DNA of 64,000 nt from a virus (taxonomy: Duplodnaviria > Caudoviricetes): IMG/VR virus record IMGVR_UViG_3300032219_002227, positions 109,247-173,246 of that record; one strand, 5' to 3'. Position 1 is the stretch's first letter. Each line of letters begins with the position of its first letter. Shown here piece by piece: positions 8,113 to 30,193 of the stretch. The position numbers and the translations under genes are program-made. The notes below the pieces were generated by a model. It had not been told where the DNA came from. It worked only from the letters and a program-made list of their open reading frames with translations, and searched no databases.

Positions 8113-8120
8113 ATATTTAT
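8113..8120 (+). promoter_or_regulatory. Late promoter box ATATTTAT (terminase)
   Basis: Recurrent intergenic octamer, directly after a terminator. Confidence 0.7.
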
Positions 8121-15338: not shown

Positions 15339-15449
15339 AAGCATCCTAAATAGGTTGCTAATTCTTATGCAACCTGGGTATATTACAAACCCCCTATTAA
15401 GATTGTCTAATAATCTTATTTCCTCAATTAAATTTAAGGAGAACAATTT

Positions 15450-16547
15450 ATGTCAAACAAAGACTTATTCAAAGAGGCTATCGCCGACGCTAAAGCTGTC
15501 CGCGAAGCTGCGTTAGCAAACGCAAAAGCTGCTCTTGAAGAAGCTTTAGCTCCAGCAATTCAAAATATGATTTCTAGTAAATTACAAGAAATTGATGAAG
15601 ATTTGGATGAAGTTGAAGATCTTGAAGAAGTAGATTTTATCTCAGCTAATGACAAAAGGAATGATTCTGATTTTATCAGAAAAAGAGCTATTGATGCAAG
15701 CCAAATGTCAGAAGGCGAAGAAGACCTAGAAGAAGATTTCGATTTATCTGAAATTTTAGCTGAATTAAGTGAAGAAAATGAACTTGAAGAAGCTAAAGAT
15801 AAGGATGAAAAGAAAGAAAATCTCTACGAAGATGAAGATGAAGAATCTGAATTAGAAACTGTAGGTGATTTAACCGTTGATGAATTTAAAGATGAAATCA
15901 GAGACATGATCAAAGATATTATCTCATCAGAAATGGGTGGTGGCGAAATGGCTGCTGCTGATGATGTAGTAGATGATGCTGAAGAAATGGCTGTTGATTT
16001 TAGCGATGAAACCGGCGGTGATGACTTACGTCAAGACACAGATGATGCTATAGCAAATGCTGAAGAAGATGACGAAGAAATCAACTTAGAAGAATTACTA
16101 GCTGAACTTGATTCTTTAGACGAAGCTAATGATACTGATGAAGTATATGAAGCTAAGAAAAAGAAAAAAACACCACAAGGCGAAGATAAAGAAGAAGAGA
16201 TAAAAGAAGCTCTTAACACTATCAATACCCTTCGCACTGAACTTAACGAAGTAAACTTGCTTAATGCTAAGTTACTTTATGTTAACAAAATTTTCAAGTC
16301 TAAGAACTTGAATGAATCACAAAAACTCAAAGTAATTGCTCAATTCGACAAAGCAACTACTGCGAAAGAAGCTAAAGTTATTTATGAATCTATGAGTAGT
16401 GCTATTGCAAAATCTGCTAAAAGCACAATCAAAGAATCATTAGGATTTGCTTCAAAAGCTGCTGGTATGGCTCCACAAAAACCAATTGTAGAAGTAAATG
16501 ATACAGTTGCTAGATGGAAAATGTTAGCAGGTATTACTAAATTTTAA
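15450..16547 (+). CDS. Prohead scaffolding protein (gp22-like)
   Basis: Highly acidic coiled-coil protein between protease and major capsid. Confidence 0.8.
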   Translation: MSNKDLFKEAIADAKAVREAALANAKAALEEALAPAIQNMISSKLQEIDEDLDEVEDLEEVDFISANDKRNDSDFIRKRAIDASQMSEGEEDLEEDFDLSEILAELSEENELEEAKDKDEKKENLYEDEDEESELETVGDLTVDEFKDEIRDMIKDIISSEMGGGEMAAADDVVDDAEEMAVDFSDETGGDDLRQDTDDAIANAEEDDEEINLEELLAELDSLDEANDTDEVYEAKKKKKTPQGEDKEEEIKEALNTINTLRTELNEVNLLNAKLLYVNKIFKSKNLNESQKLKVIAQFDKATTAKEAKVIYESMSSAIAKSAKSTIKESLGFASKAAGMAPQKPIVEVNDTVARWKMLAGITKF

Positions 16548-23421: not shown

Positions 23422-23448
23422 TTACCCATGTTATAATATATTTATATG

Positions 23449-23487
23449 TAGGTTATATATATAACCTAGAACCATTAGTATATACTA
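23449..23487. repeat. Two perfect palindromes in a fibre-gene leader
   Basis: TAGGTTATATATATAACCTA (20 bp) and TAGTATATACTA (12 bp). Confidence 0.85.
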
Positions 23488-23494
23488 GACATAA

Positions 23495-24241
23495 ATGGCT
23501 AATCAATTTTTAAAATTACGCCGTAGTAGCGTACCCGGCAAAAGGCCTGATACAGGCTCCTTAGATTACGGTGAGATAGCTCTTAACACGTATGATGGTT
23601 TAGCCTTCATAAAAAAGTCTGGTTCTAATGGTGAAGAAATAGTTGCAATTGGTTCTACAGGTTCATTTACAGGTTCGTTTTTTGGGTCATTACAAGGTAC
23701 TTCGAGTTGGGCTACTAATGCTCTAACAGCATCTTCAGCTGATAATTTTACAGTAAGAGGTACATTAACTGCTCAAACTATAGTAGTACAAGTTATTACT
23801 TCATCAACTGAGTTTGTTACTGGATCTTTAATTGTAAGTGGTGCTTTAAATGTATTTGGTGGTATTACTGGTTCTTTAAATGGTACCGCTAGTTGGGCTA
23901 CTAATGCAATATCTGCATCTTATGTTCCTGCTTCTGCTATTGTCGGATTAAATCTATCTAGAATAACAACGGGCAGTATTACTGCTAGTGTAGATGTAGA
24001 TCCTAATAATTTATTTTTAATTAAATCAGGAAGTAACACTTATTTTAATATTGCTAATAATAGTAATATAACATTATATAGCAATCAATTCATCGTAAAA
24101 AATTTCACAACACAAGAACCTATTTTAACTATATCACAAAGTATAGTACAATTCGCAACTCAATCATTAAACCCTACTAACCCAGCAAAAGGTGGAGATG
24201 TTTGGTTTACTTCAACAGAATTGTATGTAGGTCTAAACTAG
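23495..24241 (+). CDS. Fibre protein with Mtd-N-like N-terminal domain
   Basis: LKLRRS..GKRP..L.YGEIALNTYDG N-terminus; carries the shared SSADNFTVRGTLTAQT module. Confidence 0.65.
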   Translation: MANQFLKLRRSSVPGKRPDTGSLDYGEIALNTYDGLAFIKKSGSNGEEIVAIGSTGSFTGSFFGSLQGTSSWATNALTASSADNFTVRGTLTAQTIVVQVITSSTEFVTGSLIVSGALNVFGGITGSLNGTASWATNAISASYVPASAIVGLNLSRITTGSITASVDVDPNNLFLIKSGSNTYFNIANNSNITLYSNQFIVKNFTTQEPILTISQSIVQFATQSLNPTNPAKGGDVWFTSTELYVGLN

Positions 24242-24280: not shown

Positions 24281-26302
24281 ATGCCAACTTGGAAAAAAGT
24301 CATAGTCTCCGGCAGTCAAGCTGAGCTAGCTACATTAAAAGTAGATAATTTAGTAAATGGTATTGTAACCGGTAGTGCTAACGGATCACTAGGAATAGCC
24401 CCAGTAAATGGTACCGGTGCTGTTACATTGACAACAAACGCTACTGGATTAGTCCATTCTGGTTCATTTAGTGGCTCATTTAGTGGATTACTTATTACTG
24501 CTTTACCTGCAGCTAGCCAACCTAACTTTGTTGCCTATAATGTTTCTACTGGACAATTATCATATGCTGGTACTGGTTCATTTACAGCTGCAACAGCATC
24601 TTATATAACTTCTTCTAACGTTGATGGTCCTTTTGGACGTAATAGTATTTTAACTGCCTCATATGCTGTGTTTGCTACTTCAGCATCATATGCTATAAAT
24701 TCAGGCAACGCTCAAAGTGCTTCATTTGCAACAAATACAGTAAGTGCTTCTTATGCATTAAATGCAGGCAACGCTCAATCAGCATCATTTGCAACAAACG
24801 CAGGTAGTGCTTCATATGCACTTAATGCTGGTAATGCGCAAACAGCATCTTTCGCTACAAACGCAAATAGTGCCTCATACGCTGTAAATGCTGGTAATGC
24901 TCAAACCGCTTCATTTGCTACTAATGCTGGTGCTGCAGTAACTGCTCAAACAGCATCTTCAGCAGATAACTTTTTAGTTAGATCAAGTATTACAGCAACT
25001 GGCTCTTTCAACATATCAGGTAGTATTACTTCAACTGGTACTATTACCGCTCAAACACTTGTAGTTCAAACAATTACTTCAAGTGTTGATTTCGTAACTG
25101 GTTCAACTCGCTTTGGTACTTTAGCTTCTAATACACACTTATTTACAGGAAGTGTTAGCATCAGTGGTAGTTTGACCGTTCAAGGTGCTGTTAGTGCCTC
25201 TAGCTTTACAGGTAGTTTATTAGGTAATGTAACTAGTGCCTCATTTGCTACAACTGCTGTTTCATCTTCTTACTCATTAACAGCCACTTCAGCATCATAT
25301 GCTGTAAATGCTGGTAATGCAATTTCAGCTTCATTCTCTACTAATGCTGTTTCATCATCATACGCATTAAATGCAGGTAATGCTATTTCTGCTTCATTCT
25401 CAACAAACGCAGGAAGTGCATCATATGCTCTCAACGCAGGTAATGCAATTTCAGCTTCGTTTGCTACAAACGCAGGAAGTGCTTCATATGCTCTTAATGC
25501 AGGTAATGCTCAGAGTGCTTCATTTGCTACAAATGCTGCAAATGCTGCTACAGCGTCGTTTATCACATCTTCTAACGTAGTTGGTCCTAATGGTCCTAAC
25601 ACGATATTAAGTTCATCATTTGCTATAACAGCATCGTTTGCTCAAAACGGAGGTTCACTTACTAATGCCTTAACATTTGGTGTAGGCTTATCTGGTAGTG
25701 CTGCTTCATTTAATGGTGCTGCTGCAGTAACAGTTGCAATTTCAGGATCTAATTCCTTAACAACAGGTAACCATCCAAAATGGACAGGTACTGGATTCAC
25801 AAATAGTCTTATTAGTGATAACGGTACTACAGTTACTATTGCTTCTGGATCTACAATTACTGCTGGTGGATTAACAGTAACAGGTAATTCAACGTTTAAT
25901 AATAATGTAACTATAGCCGGTGACTTAGCAGTTAATGGTACTACAACATTTATTAATACTACTAATACTTTTATTAAAGATCAGTTTGTATTAATTAATA
26001 GTGGTTCTAATACATTAAGTGATGGTGGTATTATAGTACAATATAGTACTGGTTCTGGAGCTGGACCTGTAGGTTCTGCAATTTTCCTTGAATCAGCAGC
26101 AGCTGGAACTTTTGGAAGATGGGCAGTTGCTTATGGAGTAACTGGTTCTCAAACTGTAGTAGCTGCTGATGAATATATAGTAAGTACTATAATATCTGCT
26201 TCTTCCGCTTTACCAACAGCTCCAACTTGGGGTGGTGCTACAAACGGATTAGGTAACATGTTTATTAATAGTGTAAACGGTGATATATTTATTTATTCTT
26301 AG
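24281..26302 (+). CDS. Fibre protein (MPTWKKVIVSGS type) with x-Ala-x repeats
   Basis: 21 aa repeats such as NAQSASFATNAGSASYALNAG; beta-rich distal part. Confidence 0.7.
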   Translation: MPTWKKVIVSGSQAELATLKVDNLVNGIVTGSANGSLGIAPVNGTGAVTLTTNATGLVHSGSFSGSFSGLLITALPAASQPNFVAYNVSTGQLSYAGTGSFTAATASYITSSNVDGPFGRNSILTASYAVFATSASYAINSGNAQSASFATNTVSASYALNAGNAQSASFATNAGSASYALNAGNAQTASFATNANSASYAVNAGNAQTASFATNAGAAVTAQTASSADNFLVRSSITATGSFNISGSITSTGTITAQTLVVQTITSSVDFVTGSTRFGTLASNTHLFTGSVSISGSLTVQGAVSASSFTGSLLGNVTSASFATTAVSSSYSLTATSASYAVNAGNAISASFSTNAVSSSYALNAGNAISASFSTNAGSASYALNAGNAISASFATNAGSASYALNAGNAQSASFATNAANAATASFITSSNVVGPNGPNTILSSSFAITASFAQNGGSLTNALTFGVGLSGSAASFNGAAAVTVAISGSNSLTTGNHPKWTGTGFTNSLISDNGTTVTIASGSTITAGGLTVTGNSTFNNNVTIAGDLAVNGTTTFINTTNTFIKDQFVLINSGSNTLSDGGIIVQYSTGSGAGPVGSAIFLESAAAGTFGRWAVAYGVTGSQTVVAADEYIVSTIISASSALPTAPTWGGATNGLGNMFINSVNGDIFIYS

Positions 26303-26310
26303 TAAAATTT

Positions 26311-26544
26311 ATGTTTAATAAAATAAAAAAGTTTATGGGTTTCAGTTCAAAAAATATGGTTGTGACTAATGATAGTAATACTCAACAATCTCAAAATACT
26401 CCAGTTCCTCATAGCGAATTTTCGCTACAGGAACTGGAGATTCTTTTAATTGCTTTAAAAGAATGTAATCTAAAAGGATCACAAATTGAGTTATTTTACA
26501 ATTTAGTATTGAAAATACAAAATAAGTATTTAAGTCAAAAATAA
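26311..26544 (+). CDS. Small protein, possible fibre chaperone
   Basis: Short helical ORF between two fibre genes; the true start may be 26335. Confidence 0.5.
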   Translation: MFNKIKKFMGFSSKNMVVTNDSNTQQSQNTPVPHSEFSLQELEILLIALKECNLKGSQIELFYNLVLKIQNKYLSQK

Positions 26545-26569
26545 TTAAAAGAGGTTATATATTTATACC

Positions 26570-26648
26570 CACAACCATGTTGGCCCGAAAGGGAAGTAGG
26601 CATATACACGGCATAAGTGTATGTATCTAACCGCAGTATAAAGTTGTG
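26570..26648 (+). ncRNA. Candidate structured 5' leader RNA (multi-stem junction)
   Basis: CACAAC/GTTGTG outer stem, CCC-GAAA-GGG GNRA hairpin, and TAGGCATATACAC/GTGTATGTATCTA 12 bp stem; starts 4 nt after the ATATTTAT box. Confidence 0.55.
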
Positions 26649-26659
26649 AACAAATTAAT

Positions 26660-29600
26660 ATGCCAAACTGGAAAAAAGTCATTGTATCTGGCTCAAATGC
26701 TACTTTAAACTCTTTATTCGTTAGCACTAGTGTTACGGCTAGTATATTTTCTGGTTCGGCCTTTACAGGTTCATTATTTGGTACTGCAAGTTGGGCTAAT
26801 AATGCTACAACATCATCATTTGCAACAAATGCAGGAAGTGCATCTTATGCTCTTAATGCTGGCAACGCCCAATCCGCTTCATTCGCAGCAACCGCATCCT
26901 CAGCAGATAATTTCTTAGTTAGAGGCACGTTAACGGCTCAAACAATTGTAGCTCAAGTTATAACATCGTCTACTGATTTCGTAACTGGTTCTACTAGATT
27001 TGGTACATTACTTTCTAATACACATCAGTTTACTGGTAGTGTTAGTATTACGGGTAGCCTAGCAATGAATGGGGATATTAATGTAACACCAGATAAAATT
27101 ATATCTGCAGGAGGTAATGGCTCCGCTCAAGCTGGTGTTTCTATGTGGGGTACACAAAATGCTAGTCTTGGATGGGATGGATTTTTTGGTAGAAGTTTAT
27201 ATTATAGTGGATCTAACTATATATATTCATCAACAAATGCTGCTTCTTTATGGGGAACAGTAGCTGGAATTAGAGTTTTAGGATCAGTAGCAAGTGCTTT
27301 ACAATTTATAGCTAGACCGGCAACTGAACAAGGGTTAAACGTAACTGCTTCTGATATAGGTTCTTATACTAGAATGACTATATTATATGATGGTAATATT
27401 GGTATAGGTACAACATCACCAACAGCTACTCTTCATGTTTCTAACAGTACAACACCATCAGTTTTCCGAGTAGATACTGCTGGAGGAGTAGGAAGTTTAT
27501 TTGTTAGTGCAAGCAGTAATGTTGGTATAGGTACTACAACTCCATCAGCAAAACTAGATGTTAATGGTAATACTGTAATTACAGGTTCCCTTACAGTCAT
27601 CACAGGCAGTAATATTGAACTTCAAGTACTAAACACAGGAGTTAGAATAGGAAACATCATTACTGATGTTCACACCGTAACAGGTTCACTTGGCGTTAGT
27701 GGTAGTGTAACTGCAACCAATTTTACAGGTTCTCTCTTCGGTACCGCTAGTTGGGCTAATAATGTTGTAAGTTCATCTTATGCACTGAATGCAGGTAATG
27801 CTCAAACAGCTTCGTTTGCTATAACTGCTTCTTTTGCTTTAAATGGAGGTGGAGGCCCCTCAGGTCCATCATCCGGAGCAGCATACACACATACTCAAGC
27901 AGCACCTTCTACAACTTGGACTGTAGATCATAATTTAAATAATTCATATCCGGTAGTTACTGTTTATGATTTTAGCGGATTTGTAGTTGTTCCTTTAAAT
28001 ATATCTTCGTCAAATGTAAATAGAACAACAATAACTTTCTCTTATGGAGCAACAGGTTATGCTACTGCTGTAGCTGCTGGAGTATCAAATATTATTTCAG
28101 CATCGTTTGCTACCAATGCAGCAACTGCTCAAACTGCTTCATTCTTTGGTGGTTCTATTTCAAGTGCAGTATCAGCATCATATGCTTCCTCTTCTACTTC
28201 AGCATCATTTGCTACAAATGCTGTAACAGCTCAAACTGCTTCTTTCTTTAGTGGAACTGTTACATCAGCATCATATGCTCTTAATGCAGGTAATACTCAA
28301 ACTGCTTCATTTGCAACTAATGCAAACAGTGCTTCATATGCTTTGAATGCAGGTAATACTATCTCAGCATCATTCGCTACTAATACAAACAGTGCTTCAT
28401 ACGCATTAAATGCTGGTAATGCTCAATCAGCATCATTCGCTAATAATGCAGGTAGTGCTTCATATGCTCTGAATGCCGGTAATGCTCAATCATCATCGTT
28501 TGCAGCAACAGCCTCATCAGCAGATAACTTTACAGTTAGAGGTACATTAACTGCTCAAACTATTGTTGTTCAAACAATTACCTCAAGTACTGATTTTATA
28601 ACTGGATCAACTAGGTTTGGTACTTTGGCTTCTAATACTCATGTGTTTACAGGTAGCGTTAGTATTAGTGGCAGTCTTACCGTTCAGGGAGCAATTAGTG
28701 GTTCTAATATTACTGGTAGTCTTTTAGGAACAGCATCATACGCTAACAATGCTCTAAGTTCATCTTATGCAGTAAATTCCGGTAATACAATTTCCGCTTC
28801 ATTCTCAACAAATGCAGGTAGTTCATCATACGCTCTTAATGCTGGTAATACAATCTCAGCTTCGTTTACTACAAACGCAGGCAGTGCTTCATACGCATTG
28901 AATGCTGGAAATTCTATTACAGCATCGTTTGCAACAAATGCAAACAGTGCTTCATATGCATTGAATGCAGGTAATGCTCAAAGTGCTTCATTCGCTACAA
29001 ATGCAGCAAATGCCTTTATACAAAATGGTAATTCATTTGGTGCACAAGCATTACTTGGTACTAATGATGCTCAAAACTTAGCTTTCGAGACTAATGGTAC
29101 GATTAGGATGACTGTTGATTCTAATGGAAATGTTGGTATTGGAACTAATGTACCTACTAGATCATTAGATATTAGAGGTGCTGCAAGAATTGAAACTGCA
29201 AGTACTACTGAATTTGATTTTATTGGTGGGGGAGGTAATATACTTCGTATTTCATGTGGAGCAACCATACCATTTATTGGAACATTAACAAACGCACCCT
29301 TAGGCTTTTTTACTGGTGCAACTGAACGTGCACGTATTGATGCTAATGGAAACTTTGGTATAGGTACTACAGCTCCATCTGCTAGACTAGATGTTAGTGG
29401 TAGCACAGTAATTACAGGCTCACTTACAGTCATTACCGGTAGTAATATTGAACTTCAAGTACTAAATACAGGAGTAAGAATAGGAAATATTATTACTGAT
29501 GTTCATACTATAACAGGCTCACTCGGTATTAGCGGTAGTGTTACAGCAACTAATTTTACAGGTTCATTATTAGGCACTGCTTCATTTGCAACATCTGCTT

Positions 29601-30193
29601 CTTGGGCACCAGGAGGTGGAGGCGGAGGAACACCAGGAGGTTCAAATACACAAATACAATATAATAATGCATCTACTTTTGGTGGAGTGCCAGTATTAAC
29701 TTATGATGGTACTACATTAAGAGCAACAGGTTCATTTACTGGATCATTAACAGGAGCATTAATTGGTACAGCTTCATTTGCAACATCGGCATCATGGGCC
29801 CCAAGTGCTGGTGGATCTACATTTCCTTTTACTGGTACTGCTGTTATAACAGGCTCATTAGTTGTAACTGGATCTTTTGATCTTAATAATACTAGATTTA
29901 ATTCTACTTCATCCGCAACAACAGCAGGTACAACAATAGTATCTTCTAATGCTACTGGTTCTTTTAATTCAGCATTCTATAATTACTATATATCATCTGG
30001 TTCAAATGCTAGAGCAGGACAAATTATGTCTGTATGGAGTGGTAGTACAATAAATTATACTGAAGTAACAACTACTGATATAGGAAATACAAATACAGCT
30101 TCTCTTGCTGTAACATTAGCTACAGGAAATGTGCGTTTAAGTTTTACAGCACCTGGTGTTTGGACAGTAAGATCAATTGTTAACCTATTATAA
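26660..30193 (+). CDS. Long modular fibre protein (MPNWKKVIVSGS type)
   Basis: x-Ala-x repeats, GNVGIGTT.P repeats, WTVDHNLN..YP module, GTNDAQNL.FETNG module, internal duplications. Confidence 0.75.
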   Translation: MPNWKKVIVSGSNATLNSLFVSTSVTASIFSGSAFTGSLFGTASWANNATTSSFATNAGSASYALNAGNAQSASFAATASSADNFLVRGTLTAQTIVAQVITSSTDFVTGSTRFGTLLSNTHQFTGSVSITGSLAMNGDINVTPDKIISAGGNGSAQAGVSMWGTQNASLGWDGFFGRSLYYSGSNYIYSSTNAASLWGTVAGIRVLGSVASALQFIARPATEQGLNVTASDIGSYTRMTILYDGNIGIGTTSPTATLHVSNSTTPSVFRVDTAGGVGSLFVSASSNVGIGTTTPSAKLDVNGNTVITGSLTVITGSNIELQVLNTGVRIGNIITDVHTVTGSLGVSGSVTATNFTGSLFGTASWANNVVSSSYALNAGNAQTASFAITASFALNGGGGPSGPSSGAAYTHTQAAPSTTWTVDHNLNNSYPVVTVYDFSGFVVVPLNISSSNVNRTTITFSYGATGYATAVAAGVSNIISASFATNAATAQTASFFGGSISSAVSASYASSSTSASFATNAVTAQTASFFSGTVTSASYALNAGNTQTASFATNANSASYALNAGNTISASFATNTNSASYALNAGNAQSASFANNAGSASYALNAGNAQSSSFAATASSADNFTVRGTLTAQTIVVQTITSSTDFITGSTRFGTLASNTHVFTGSVSISGSLTVQGAISGSNITGSLLGTASYANNALSSSYAVNSGNTISASFSTNAGSSSYALNAGNTISASFTTNAGSASYALNAGNSITASFATNANSASYALNAGNAQSASFATNAANAFIQNGNSFGAQALLGTNDAQNLAFETNGTIRMTVDSNGNVGIGTNVPTRSLDIRGAARIETASTTEFDFIGGGGNILRISCGATIPFIGTLTNAPLGFFTGATERARIDANGNFGIGTTAPSARLDVSGSTVITGSLTVITGSNIELQVLNTGVRIGNIITDVHTITGSLGISGSVTATNFTGSLLGTASFATSASWAPGGGGGGTPGGSNTQIQYNNASTFGGVPVLTYDGTTLRATGSFTGSLTGALIGTASFATSASWAPSAGGSTFPFTGTAVITGSLVVTGSFDLNNTRFNSTSSATTAGTTIVSSNATGSFNSAFYNYYISSGSNARAGQIMSVWSGSTINYTEVTTTDIGNTNTASLAVTLATGNVRLSFTAPGVWTVRSIVNLL

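Follow-up and report, generated by a model that had tools for sequence, protein, structure and literature searches.

A new family of three-way-junction RNAs precedes a tail-fibre gene in aquatic Flavobacterium-type phages

The interval 26578-26635 on the + strand of the analysed phage DNA (a stretch of 64 kb, hereafter the window) belongs to a widespread family of three-way-junction RNAs of approximately 58 nt. Well over 100 aquatic Flavobacterium-type phages carry such an RNA, always before one and the same fibre gene. The family is new, being absent from Rfam 15 and, as far as our literature search went, from published papers. Most likely, the RNA governs the amount of fibre protein that is made. 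We consider it somewhat better than an even bet that it is a cis-acting translational operator of the fibre gene with a putative effector; we infer both translational control and its putative direction.

The window makes up the final 64 kb of a virus record that is 173,246 bp long and carries direct terminal repeats. All of the large ORFs lie on the + strand. The closest named relative of this phage is Flavobacterium phage vB_FspM_immuto. The RNA region fills a 115-nt gap between an ORF of 77 aa (26311-26544, +) and an ORF of 1177 aa (26660-30193, +), and the RNA occurs in a single copy in its own 173-kb genome. The GC ratio was 0.40 at 26550-26649 versus 0.18-0.27 immediately upstream, so that the GC-richer stretch described in an earlier account drawn from the letters of the window (the sequence-only reading) is indeed present. 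The 1177-aa ORF is a repeat-rich fibre gene that begins MPNWKKVIVSGS and whose start resembles that of the annotated 'putative tail fiber-like protein' of immuto. As a side observation, proline codon 2 of the fibre gene (26663-26665 in the window) is CCA or CCG in 104/108 members, compared with 52% for these two codons together (and 40% for CCT) among the proline codons elsewhere in the same ORFs; this bias is independent of the nucleotide in the P2 bulge described below. A paralogous fibre gene with an MPTWKK start (MPTWKKVIVSGS, 673 aa) is located at 24281-26302 and has its own promoter-like box and a plain 28-nt leader. The RNA was found neither before this paralogue nor before the MATWKK genes of relatives with enough upstream sequence, and because the relatives have these MATWKK genes at the paralogue's position, the RNA is limited to the second fibre gene of the pair. 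Further upstream, ORF 23495-24241, whose N-terminus matches a tail-fibre PHROG, has a 49-nt leader (23446-23494) containing the perfect 20-nt palindrome TAGGTTATATATATAACCTA.

The family was collected separately by protein and by RNA. Viral contigs scanned with the first 247 fibre residues yielded 79 loci, 38 of which, together with immuto, contained a gene starting with MP[NS]WKK. The 160 nt upstream of these genes shared a clear common motif, and a covariance model (R1) matched all 38 MP[NS]WKK loci with scores of 30.9-68.4 bits and nothing else in those loci; the window's own RNA scored 58.6 bits. On the RNA side, a pattern composed only of conserved RNA positions retrieved at least 120 viral stretches. 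Among the 120 matches listed, an MP[NSA]W..-type ORF began 12-27 nt after the motif in at least 112, and four were unrelated GC-rich chance matches. Two loci (L142 and L087) kept the motif in front of either a different ORF (241 aa, MSNSENF...) or a short MPNY... ORF, and their fibre genes may have been replaced or broken. The protein-only and RNA-only collections agreed, which means that the conservation is independent of how the loci were found. The family-wide consensus of the fibre N-terminus was MP[NS]WKK..SGS. Applied to bacterial genomes (596 Gb), the same RNA pattern gave at least 120 stretches. Of the 120 listed, not one preceded an MPNWKK-type gene, and the 100 of them that were scored with the model reached at most 22 bits and included no true copy, so the listed bacterial matches look like chance matches; rare prophage copies may exist beyond these. 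The only cultured carrier is immuto, whose host is Flavobacterium sp. LMO8, and the hosts of the carriers are presumably Bacteroidia.

The fold was recovered without guidance by RNAalifold from a MAFFT alignment of 108 distinct cores (A1). In this alignment, 95.9% of the cells were paired versus 30-43% when the partners were slid, and 306 double changes were counted versus 92 in shuffles, with 0/500 shuffles reaching the observed number. Since the pattern scan had fixed the conserved positions, the count was redone on 27 protein-anchored cores from sequences collected by protein alone (A4), where 94.5% of the cells were paired versus 32-41% with slid partners and 52 double changes were observed versus 14.6 in shuffles, again with 0/500 shuffles reaching the observed value. 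The sequence-only reading had proposed an undescribed cis-regulatory RNA and staked this proposal on conservation and covariation among homologous leaders; both were looked for and found (38/38 loci, 0/500 shuffles). What emerged is a conserved and covarying fold of the sense strand; it goes with a single gene family and lies between a promoter-like box and a start codon. The term undescribed cis-regulatory RNA fits these findings, while the feedback on fibre stoichiometry that was offered as an example is a conjecture.

The 5' strand of helix P2 (26578-26583, +) consists of U-G-U, a bulged U26581 and G-G, and pairs with 26631-26635. It corresponds to the inner stem UG(U)UGG/CCGCA of the sequence-only reading, which is present and is supported by the relatives as a helix with a bulged nucleotide. 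Pair counts were AU 62, GC 41 and UA 4 at one position and AU 74, GC 14 and UA 12 at another. When pairing in cis was compared with pairing in trans, the bulged register paired 5.43 of 6 positions and the register without a bulge 2.14 of 6. The bulge lies two pairs below the junction and is U in 71 members, A in 28 and C in 9. Hairpin P3 (26584-26593, +), the CCC-GAAA-GGG hairpin that had been picked out by eye and that the relatives confirm, directly abuts P2 with a 0-nt junction. Its two basal C-G pairs are invariant, its third pair covaries (CG 67, UA 20, UG 4), and its loop is variable and often a GNRA tetraloop. The AAG that follows (26594-26596, +), previously described as a linker, is junction strand J3/4 in the relatives as well; its family form is RAG, and in A4 the A-G was invariant and the first A nearly so, with GAG in L028 and L069.

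Helix P4 (26597-26629, +) starts with three basal pairs (26597-99 with 26627-29; U-A, R-Y and G-C), followed by a bulge of A26625 and U26626. Above the bulge are the pairs G26600.U26624 and C26601-G26623 and then a variable hairpin, P4b (26602-26622, +), which covaries freely. The R-Y pair 26598/26628 was GC in 70 members and AU in 38 and never GU or AC, while the search pattern permitted all four, and the G.U pair of P4 was kept in 98/108 members and replaced by AU in the other 10. The fold is completed by J4/2 (A26630) and the P2 3' strand CCGCA (26630-26635 together, +), where the junction A and the CC are conserved and the next positions covary with the P2 5' strand. A U.G pair occurred in P2 in 48/108 members. 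Because this U.G and the G.U of P4 would be C-A mismatches on the opposite strand, the fold belongs to the sense strand. Overall, approximately 25 conserved core nucleotides are arranged in a compact junction with two conserved bulges. Resemblances to the 23S GTPase-centre RNA, 16S helix 45 and S15 sites were considered and rejected, as the shared words were short and the strand order was different.

Two stems of the sequence-only reading had to be revised. Its 12-bp stem with one C-A mismatch coincides with the long hairpin at 26597-26629, and that register is possible in the window; the family, however, uses the bulged register, the only one that members with other P4b sequences fit. Its outer stem CACAAC/GTTGTG (26570-26575, +, with 26643-26648) lies outside the conserved element and did not hold up, since complementarity across the family showed no excess (the best helix averaged 5.17 bp in cis, against 5.10 bp when arms of unrelated members were combined and 5.27 bp for shuffled sequences). 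The last stem of that reading does end 11 nt before the ATG at 26660, as had been stated.

Folding of the single sequence was no better than chance, and the structure is visible only by comparison with relatives. On the + strand, the MFE z score against shuffles was -1.47 when the intergenic region was folded, -1.12 when the core was folded and -0.51 when the gene start was included; on the minus strand it was -0.54. Thus, the description of a compact multi-stem RNA stands for P2, P3, AAG and P4 on the strength of the relatives, but not on that of the single-sequence scores (z of -1.1 to -1.5). The Rfam scan that had been proposed as a check returned no known family: Rfam 15 gave no match in the whole window at gathering scores, none overlapping 26545-26659 at E values up to 10 (hammerhead included) and none at E values up to 1 in 15 other family members. 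A literature search found no description of the motif or of Flavobacterium-phage late promoters. The RNA's hairpins are not followed by a T-run, and the region is absent from the terminator list, which does not fit an intrinsic terminator. Nor does the RNA qualify as a hammerhead: it lacks the CUGANGA core, as the sequence-only reading had already remarked, and it has junction strands of 0 nt, RAG and A.

The RNA is immediately preceded by the box ATATTTAT (26559-26566, +), present exactly where that reading had placed it. The window contains 26 copies of ATATTTAT. The + strand carries 24 of these, and approximately 19 copies were located 4-111 nt before an ORF start, several right behind a hairpin and T-run. 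The copies (e.g., at 8113, 18250, 24245, 26285, 26559, 49290 and 50335) precede most structural genes, and this strand bias and positioning suggest that ATATTTAT is likely a -10-like element of the late promoter in this phage group. In most relatives, the distance from the end of a TATTTAT-type box to the first pair of P2 is 5-11 nt. The RNA, which would be transcribed from the ATATTTAT box, would therefore begin at about the base of P2. With the box acting like a -10 element, the 5' arm of the rejected outer stem would fall at or before the expected transcript start. Contigs carrying the motif of relatives occurred in two lake metatranscriptome libraries, one contig spanning box, motif and gene start; they offer weak support for transcription, as DNA carry-over is possible and transcript ends are not visible in contigs. 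In a contig from RNA library X19, an Illumina adapter was joined at 26591/26592, inside P3, and the contig continued into the relative's gene start. Most other late leaders in the window are approximately 15-50 nt in length and lack such a fold. Separately, a 111-nt late leader (15339-15449) follows ATATTTAT before ORF 15450-16547; it had a z score of -3.3 against shuffles and pairs an SD-like AAGGAG with UUUCCUC.

A helix at about the first bases of the transcript could also be a 5'-terminal stabiliser or processing element that blocks 5'-end-dependent decay or marks a processing site and leaves initiation untouched. No + strand intrinsic terminator was found between 18243 and 37000, so overlapping long transcripts would be expected, in line with such a role, and the adapter-joined fragment end inside P3 could be taken as a very weak pointer in the same direction. 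However, any stable hairpin would serve this purpose, and the invariant junction nucleotides, bulges and G.U pair argue for specific recognition; moreover, the other late leaders of the window are short and plain, and this role would leave unexplained why only one of the two paralogous fibre genes has the RNA. We consider this explanation quite unlikely.

The same fragment end might suggest a new class of self-cleaving ribozyme cutting the late polycistronic RNA just 5' of the fibre gene, and as a small three-way junction that has a conserved core, occurs commonly in phages and is missing from Rfam, the RNA would be a candidate for such a class. Yet the end lies in the variable P3 loop, outside the conserved core, no known ribozyme model matches at E values up to 10, the hammerhead core is absent, and a strict tie to one gene start and one promoter position would be unusual among phage ribozymes, which together make cleavage very improbable. 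Equally improbable, in our estimation, is a put-like processive antitermination RNA that modifies the transcribing polymerase for read-through of the long fibre operon. It would account for a multi-hairpin RNA placed right after a promoter-like box with more than 10 kb of large structural genes ahead, but the interval between 18243 and 37000 offers no + strand intrinsic terminator to be read through, although it may hold Rho-dependent sites, the tight distance between motif and ATG is not needed for antitermination, and the window's other late units with the same box lack the motif.

A homologue of the 77-aa ORF (26311-26544, +) was located directly 5' of the RNA in 102/108 loci, and the module therefore includes this small protein gene. 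Its conserved order is a small helical protein gene, the ATATTTAT late-promoter-like box, the RNA and the fibre gene. In the AF2 model of the 77-aa protein, the N-terminus was disordered and helices 39-50 and 58-76 had pLDDT values >90, indicating a small helix-loop-helix protein family; a bare helix-loop-helix of this kind is below the size useful for a fold search. The protein matched no Pfam or PHROG family, and its Atlas matches were viral hypotheticals alone. Its family comprises two subtypes, each found with both RNA classes, and co-variation between RNA class and homologue subtype was not apparent when judged by eye from the locus lists.

The motif, the small gene and the conserved fibre N-terminus recur as a set in phages that differ widely from one another, and the fibre bodies downstream are of highly variable length (81-2526 aa among the RNA-pattern loci listed). 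This would also suit an element acting at the DNA level, or else an RNA with a structural role or a role in trans, for example a boundary for the recombinational exchange of fibre modules or an assembly RNA released from the leader. Compensatory changes and a strand-specific G.U pair would be unexpected for a duplex-DNA site, however, and there is no terminator or processing signal to free a separate small RNA; we regard this as extremely improbable.

The position of the RNA relative to the fibre start codon is constrained. The ATG lies 12-27 nt after the CC of P2 (mode, 15), except for five loci in which the motif is 114-125 nt from the ATG, and the core ends 24 nt before the ATG in the window and 5-24 nt before it in most members. 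This is the leader structure close upstream of the initiation region that an operator would have. Because P2 ends 24 nt before the ATG in the window, simple steric occlusion by P2 is inapplicable there, and with P2 ending at -25, another link to the start is needed. In short-leader members, the A-rich P2 3' strand itself lies at about -10 to -17. In the window, the linker up to the start codon (26636-26659, +) is A/U-rich and carries adenines at -3 and -6. In the family as a whole, A made up 41-68% at positions -14 to -2, and an SD-like tetramer occurred in only 14/103 leaders. Ribosomes of Bacteroidia ignore Shine-Dalgarno sequences (PMC7797042), and initiation in Flavobacterium johnsoniae is tuned by local mRNA structure and by adenines at -3, -6, -12 and -13 (PMC6847099). 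A-rich leaders with few SD tetramers thus fit Bacteroidia hosts.

In the window, the required link may be provided by the P4b loop. This loop reads GGCAUA (26610-26615, +) and is complementary to the start site UAUGCC (26659-26664); the partner (U)AUGCC spans the start codon and extends two bases into the proline codon. GGCAU was invariant in 23/23 distinct long-P4b members, the window included, while the stem beneath it varies. All 23 could form 5-7 Watson-Crick pairs between loop and start site, compared with 2-4 in the other subgroups, and shuffled loops reached at least 6 bp in 2.5% of trials. The duplex was calculated at -8.9 kcal/mol. On these grounds of complementarity, the P4b loop may pair with the start site in the long-P4b subgroup. 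Since loop and start site are both invariant, this pairing is beyond the reach of a covariation test, and changes at its sixth position showed no compensation.

Other pairings with the start region are confined to single members or subgroups. By nearest-neighbour prediction, the core pairs had a median probability of 0.2 in context with the gene start, and 0.00 in the window; such marginal predicted stability suits an element that requires a partner or a kinetic window. In the window only, the 5' strands of P2/P3 and P4 are complementary to the start region (-10.3 and -10.2 kcal/mol, respectively). A helix of UUGGC (26580-84) with GCCAA (26662-66) had a pairing probability of 0.87 in the window and a family mean of 0.04-0.07; it did not covary with the bulge nucleotide and was rejected as a family feature. 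In the long-spacer subfamily (L062 (1387-1503), L070, L071, L072, L092 and L157), motif and ATG are approximately 118 nt apart. This spacer contains a hairpin, a UUCUAUCG segment with complementarity to the 3' strand of P2, and then another hairpin, which reaches to within a few nt of the ATG. In these variants, the P2 3' strand consequently has a second downstream partner (CGAUAGAA/UUCUAUCG). Mutually exclusive pairings are candidates in such subgroups, where they lack covariation, and are not general across the family.

A constant core with varied links to the start is the pattern typical of regulatory leaders, whether protein- or ligand-binding. In the translational operator that we favour, a putative effector, perhaps a small ligand, the ribosome or a protein of phage or host origin, would recognise the conserved junction core. 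This core takes in the upper part of P2 and its bulged nucleotide, the basal part of P3, RAG, and, in P4, the basal pairs, the 2-nt bulge and the G.U/C-G step. The lineage-specific periphery would then couple this core to the start site. In the window's subgroup, the P4b loop GGCAU(A) would pair with (U)AUGCC and hide the start codon, and in short-leader subgroups the P2 3' strand itself would cover about -10 to -17. The fibre N-terminus and the 77-aa neighbour are candidates for the binder in the case of a repressor.

The same architecture could be read as a metabolite or ion riboswitch, in which the core would be an aptamer reporting the state of the host and the periphery an expression platform for fibre synthesis. 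A conserved, covarying core of approximately 25 nt in a compact junction with two bulges, as found in both A1 and A4, a periphery that differs by lineage around it, the thermodynamically marginal fold in context and the alternative downstream partner of the P2 3' strand in long-spacer variants are all consistent with this explanation. On the other hand, a tail-fibre gene suggests no obvious metabolite, an exclusive association with one gene family is more usual for operators that bind proteins, the alternative pairings do not covary, the helix to the start is strong in the window alone, and a terminator-type platform is absent; a riboswitch therefore appears rather unlikely. Also unlikely, in our view, is the broader possibility that the core senses either a small ligand or the SD-blind Bacteroidia ribosome and that the lineages have wired this sensor to the start via different pairings. 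If the core were such a sensor, the phage could adjust how much of one of its two fibres is made to the state of the infected cell, and the RNA would represent a new class of riboswitch or of ribosome-recruiting element that acts on the equipment for host range.

The nearest parallels to an operator of the fibre gene come from phage T4, namely the operators of genes 32 and 43 and the start-site hairpins of gene e and I-TevI. The gene 32 operator is a pseudoknot with an A+U-rich linker and the gene 43 operator a hairpin, and gene e and I-TevI have sequestered start regions that are relieved in late-promoter transcripts (PMC3014915). Like these, the family places a gene-specific, structured leader element within approximately 70 nt of the start codon, with an A/U-rich single-stranded stretch reaching the initiation region and a late promoter at the edge of the structure. 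In contrast to the T4 operators, its fold is an unrelated three-way junction with two bulges, its effector is putative whereas operators of the T4 type are specifically bound by a repressor protein, often the product of the regulated gene, it spans more than 100 divergent uncultured phages rather than close relatives of T4, and its hosts do without Shine-Dalgarno pairing.

Translational riboswitches of the SAM-II and preQ1-II type hide the start region in a pseudoknot. The compact, aptamer-like core and the loop-to-start pairing would follow the same logic in the window's subgroup, except that the candidate partner is the start codon itself and not a Shine-Dalgarno sequence. With the hammerhead, the RNA has in common a small three-way junction, a short GNRA-capped arm and frequent occurrence in phage DNA; it differs in the absence of the CUGANGA/GAAA core and in its junction strands of 0, 3 (RAG) and 1 (A) nt. 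A comparative-genomics study of cyanophage-associated leader motifs reportedly described orphan motifs that are now in Rfam. Those motifs, too, are covarying RNAs found 5' of one phage gene type in metagenomes, whereas the present family matches no Rfam 15 model and is associated with a tail-fibre gene and another host group.

Overall, these results describe a large, cleanly covarying RNA family that stood outside every catalogue and that precedes the class of gene deciding which bacteria a phage attaches to. Because the hosts initiate translation without Shine-Dalgarno pairing, the action of structured leaders in them has been little explored, and since a cultured carrier (immuto) and reporter tools for F. 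johnsoniae exist, the function of the RNA is directly testable. Any mechanism operating here would be a new case of phage post-transcriptional control beyond the T4/E. coli model.
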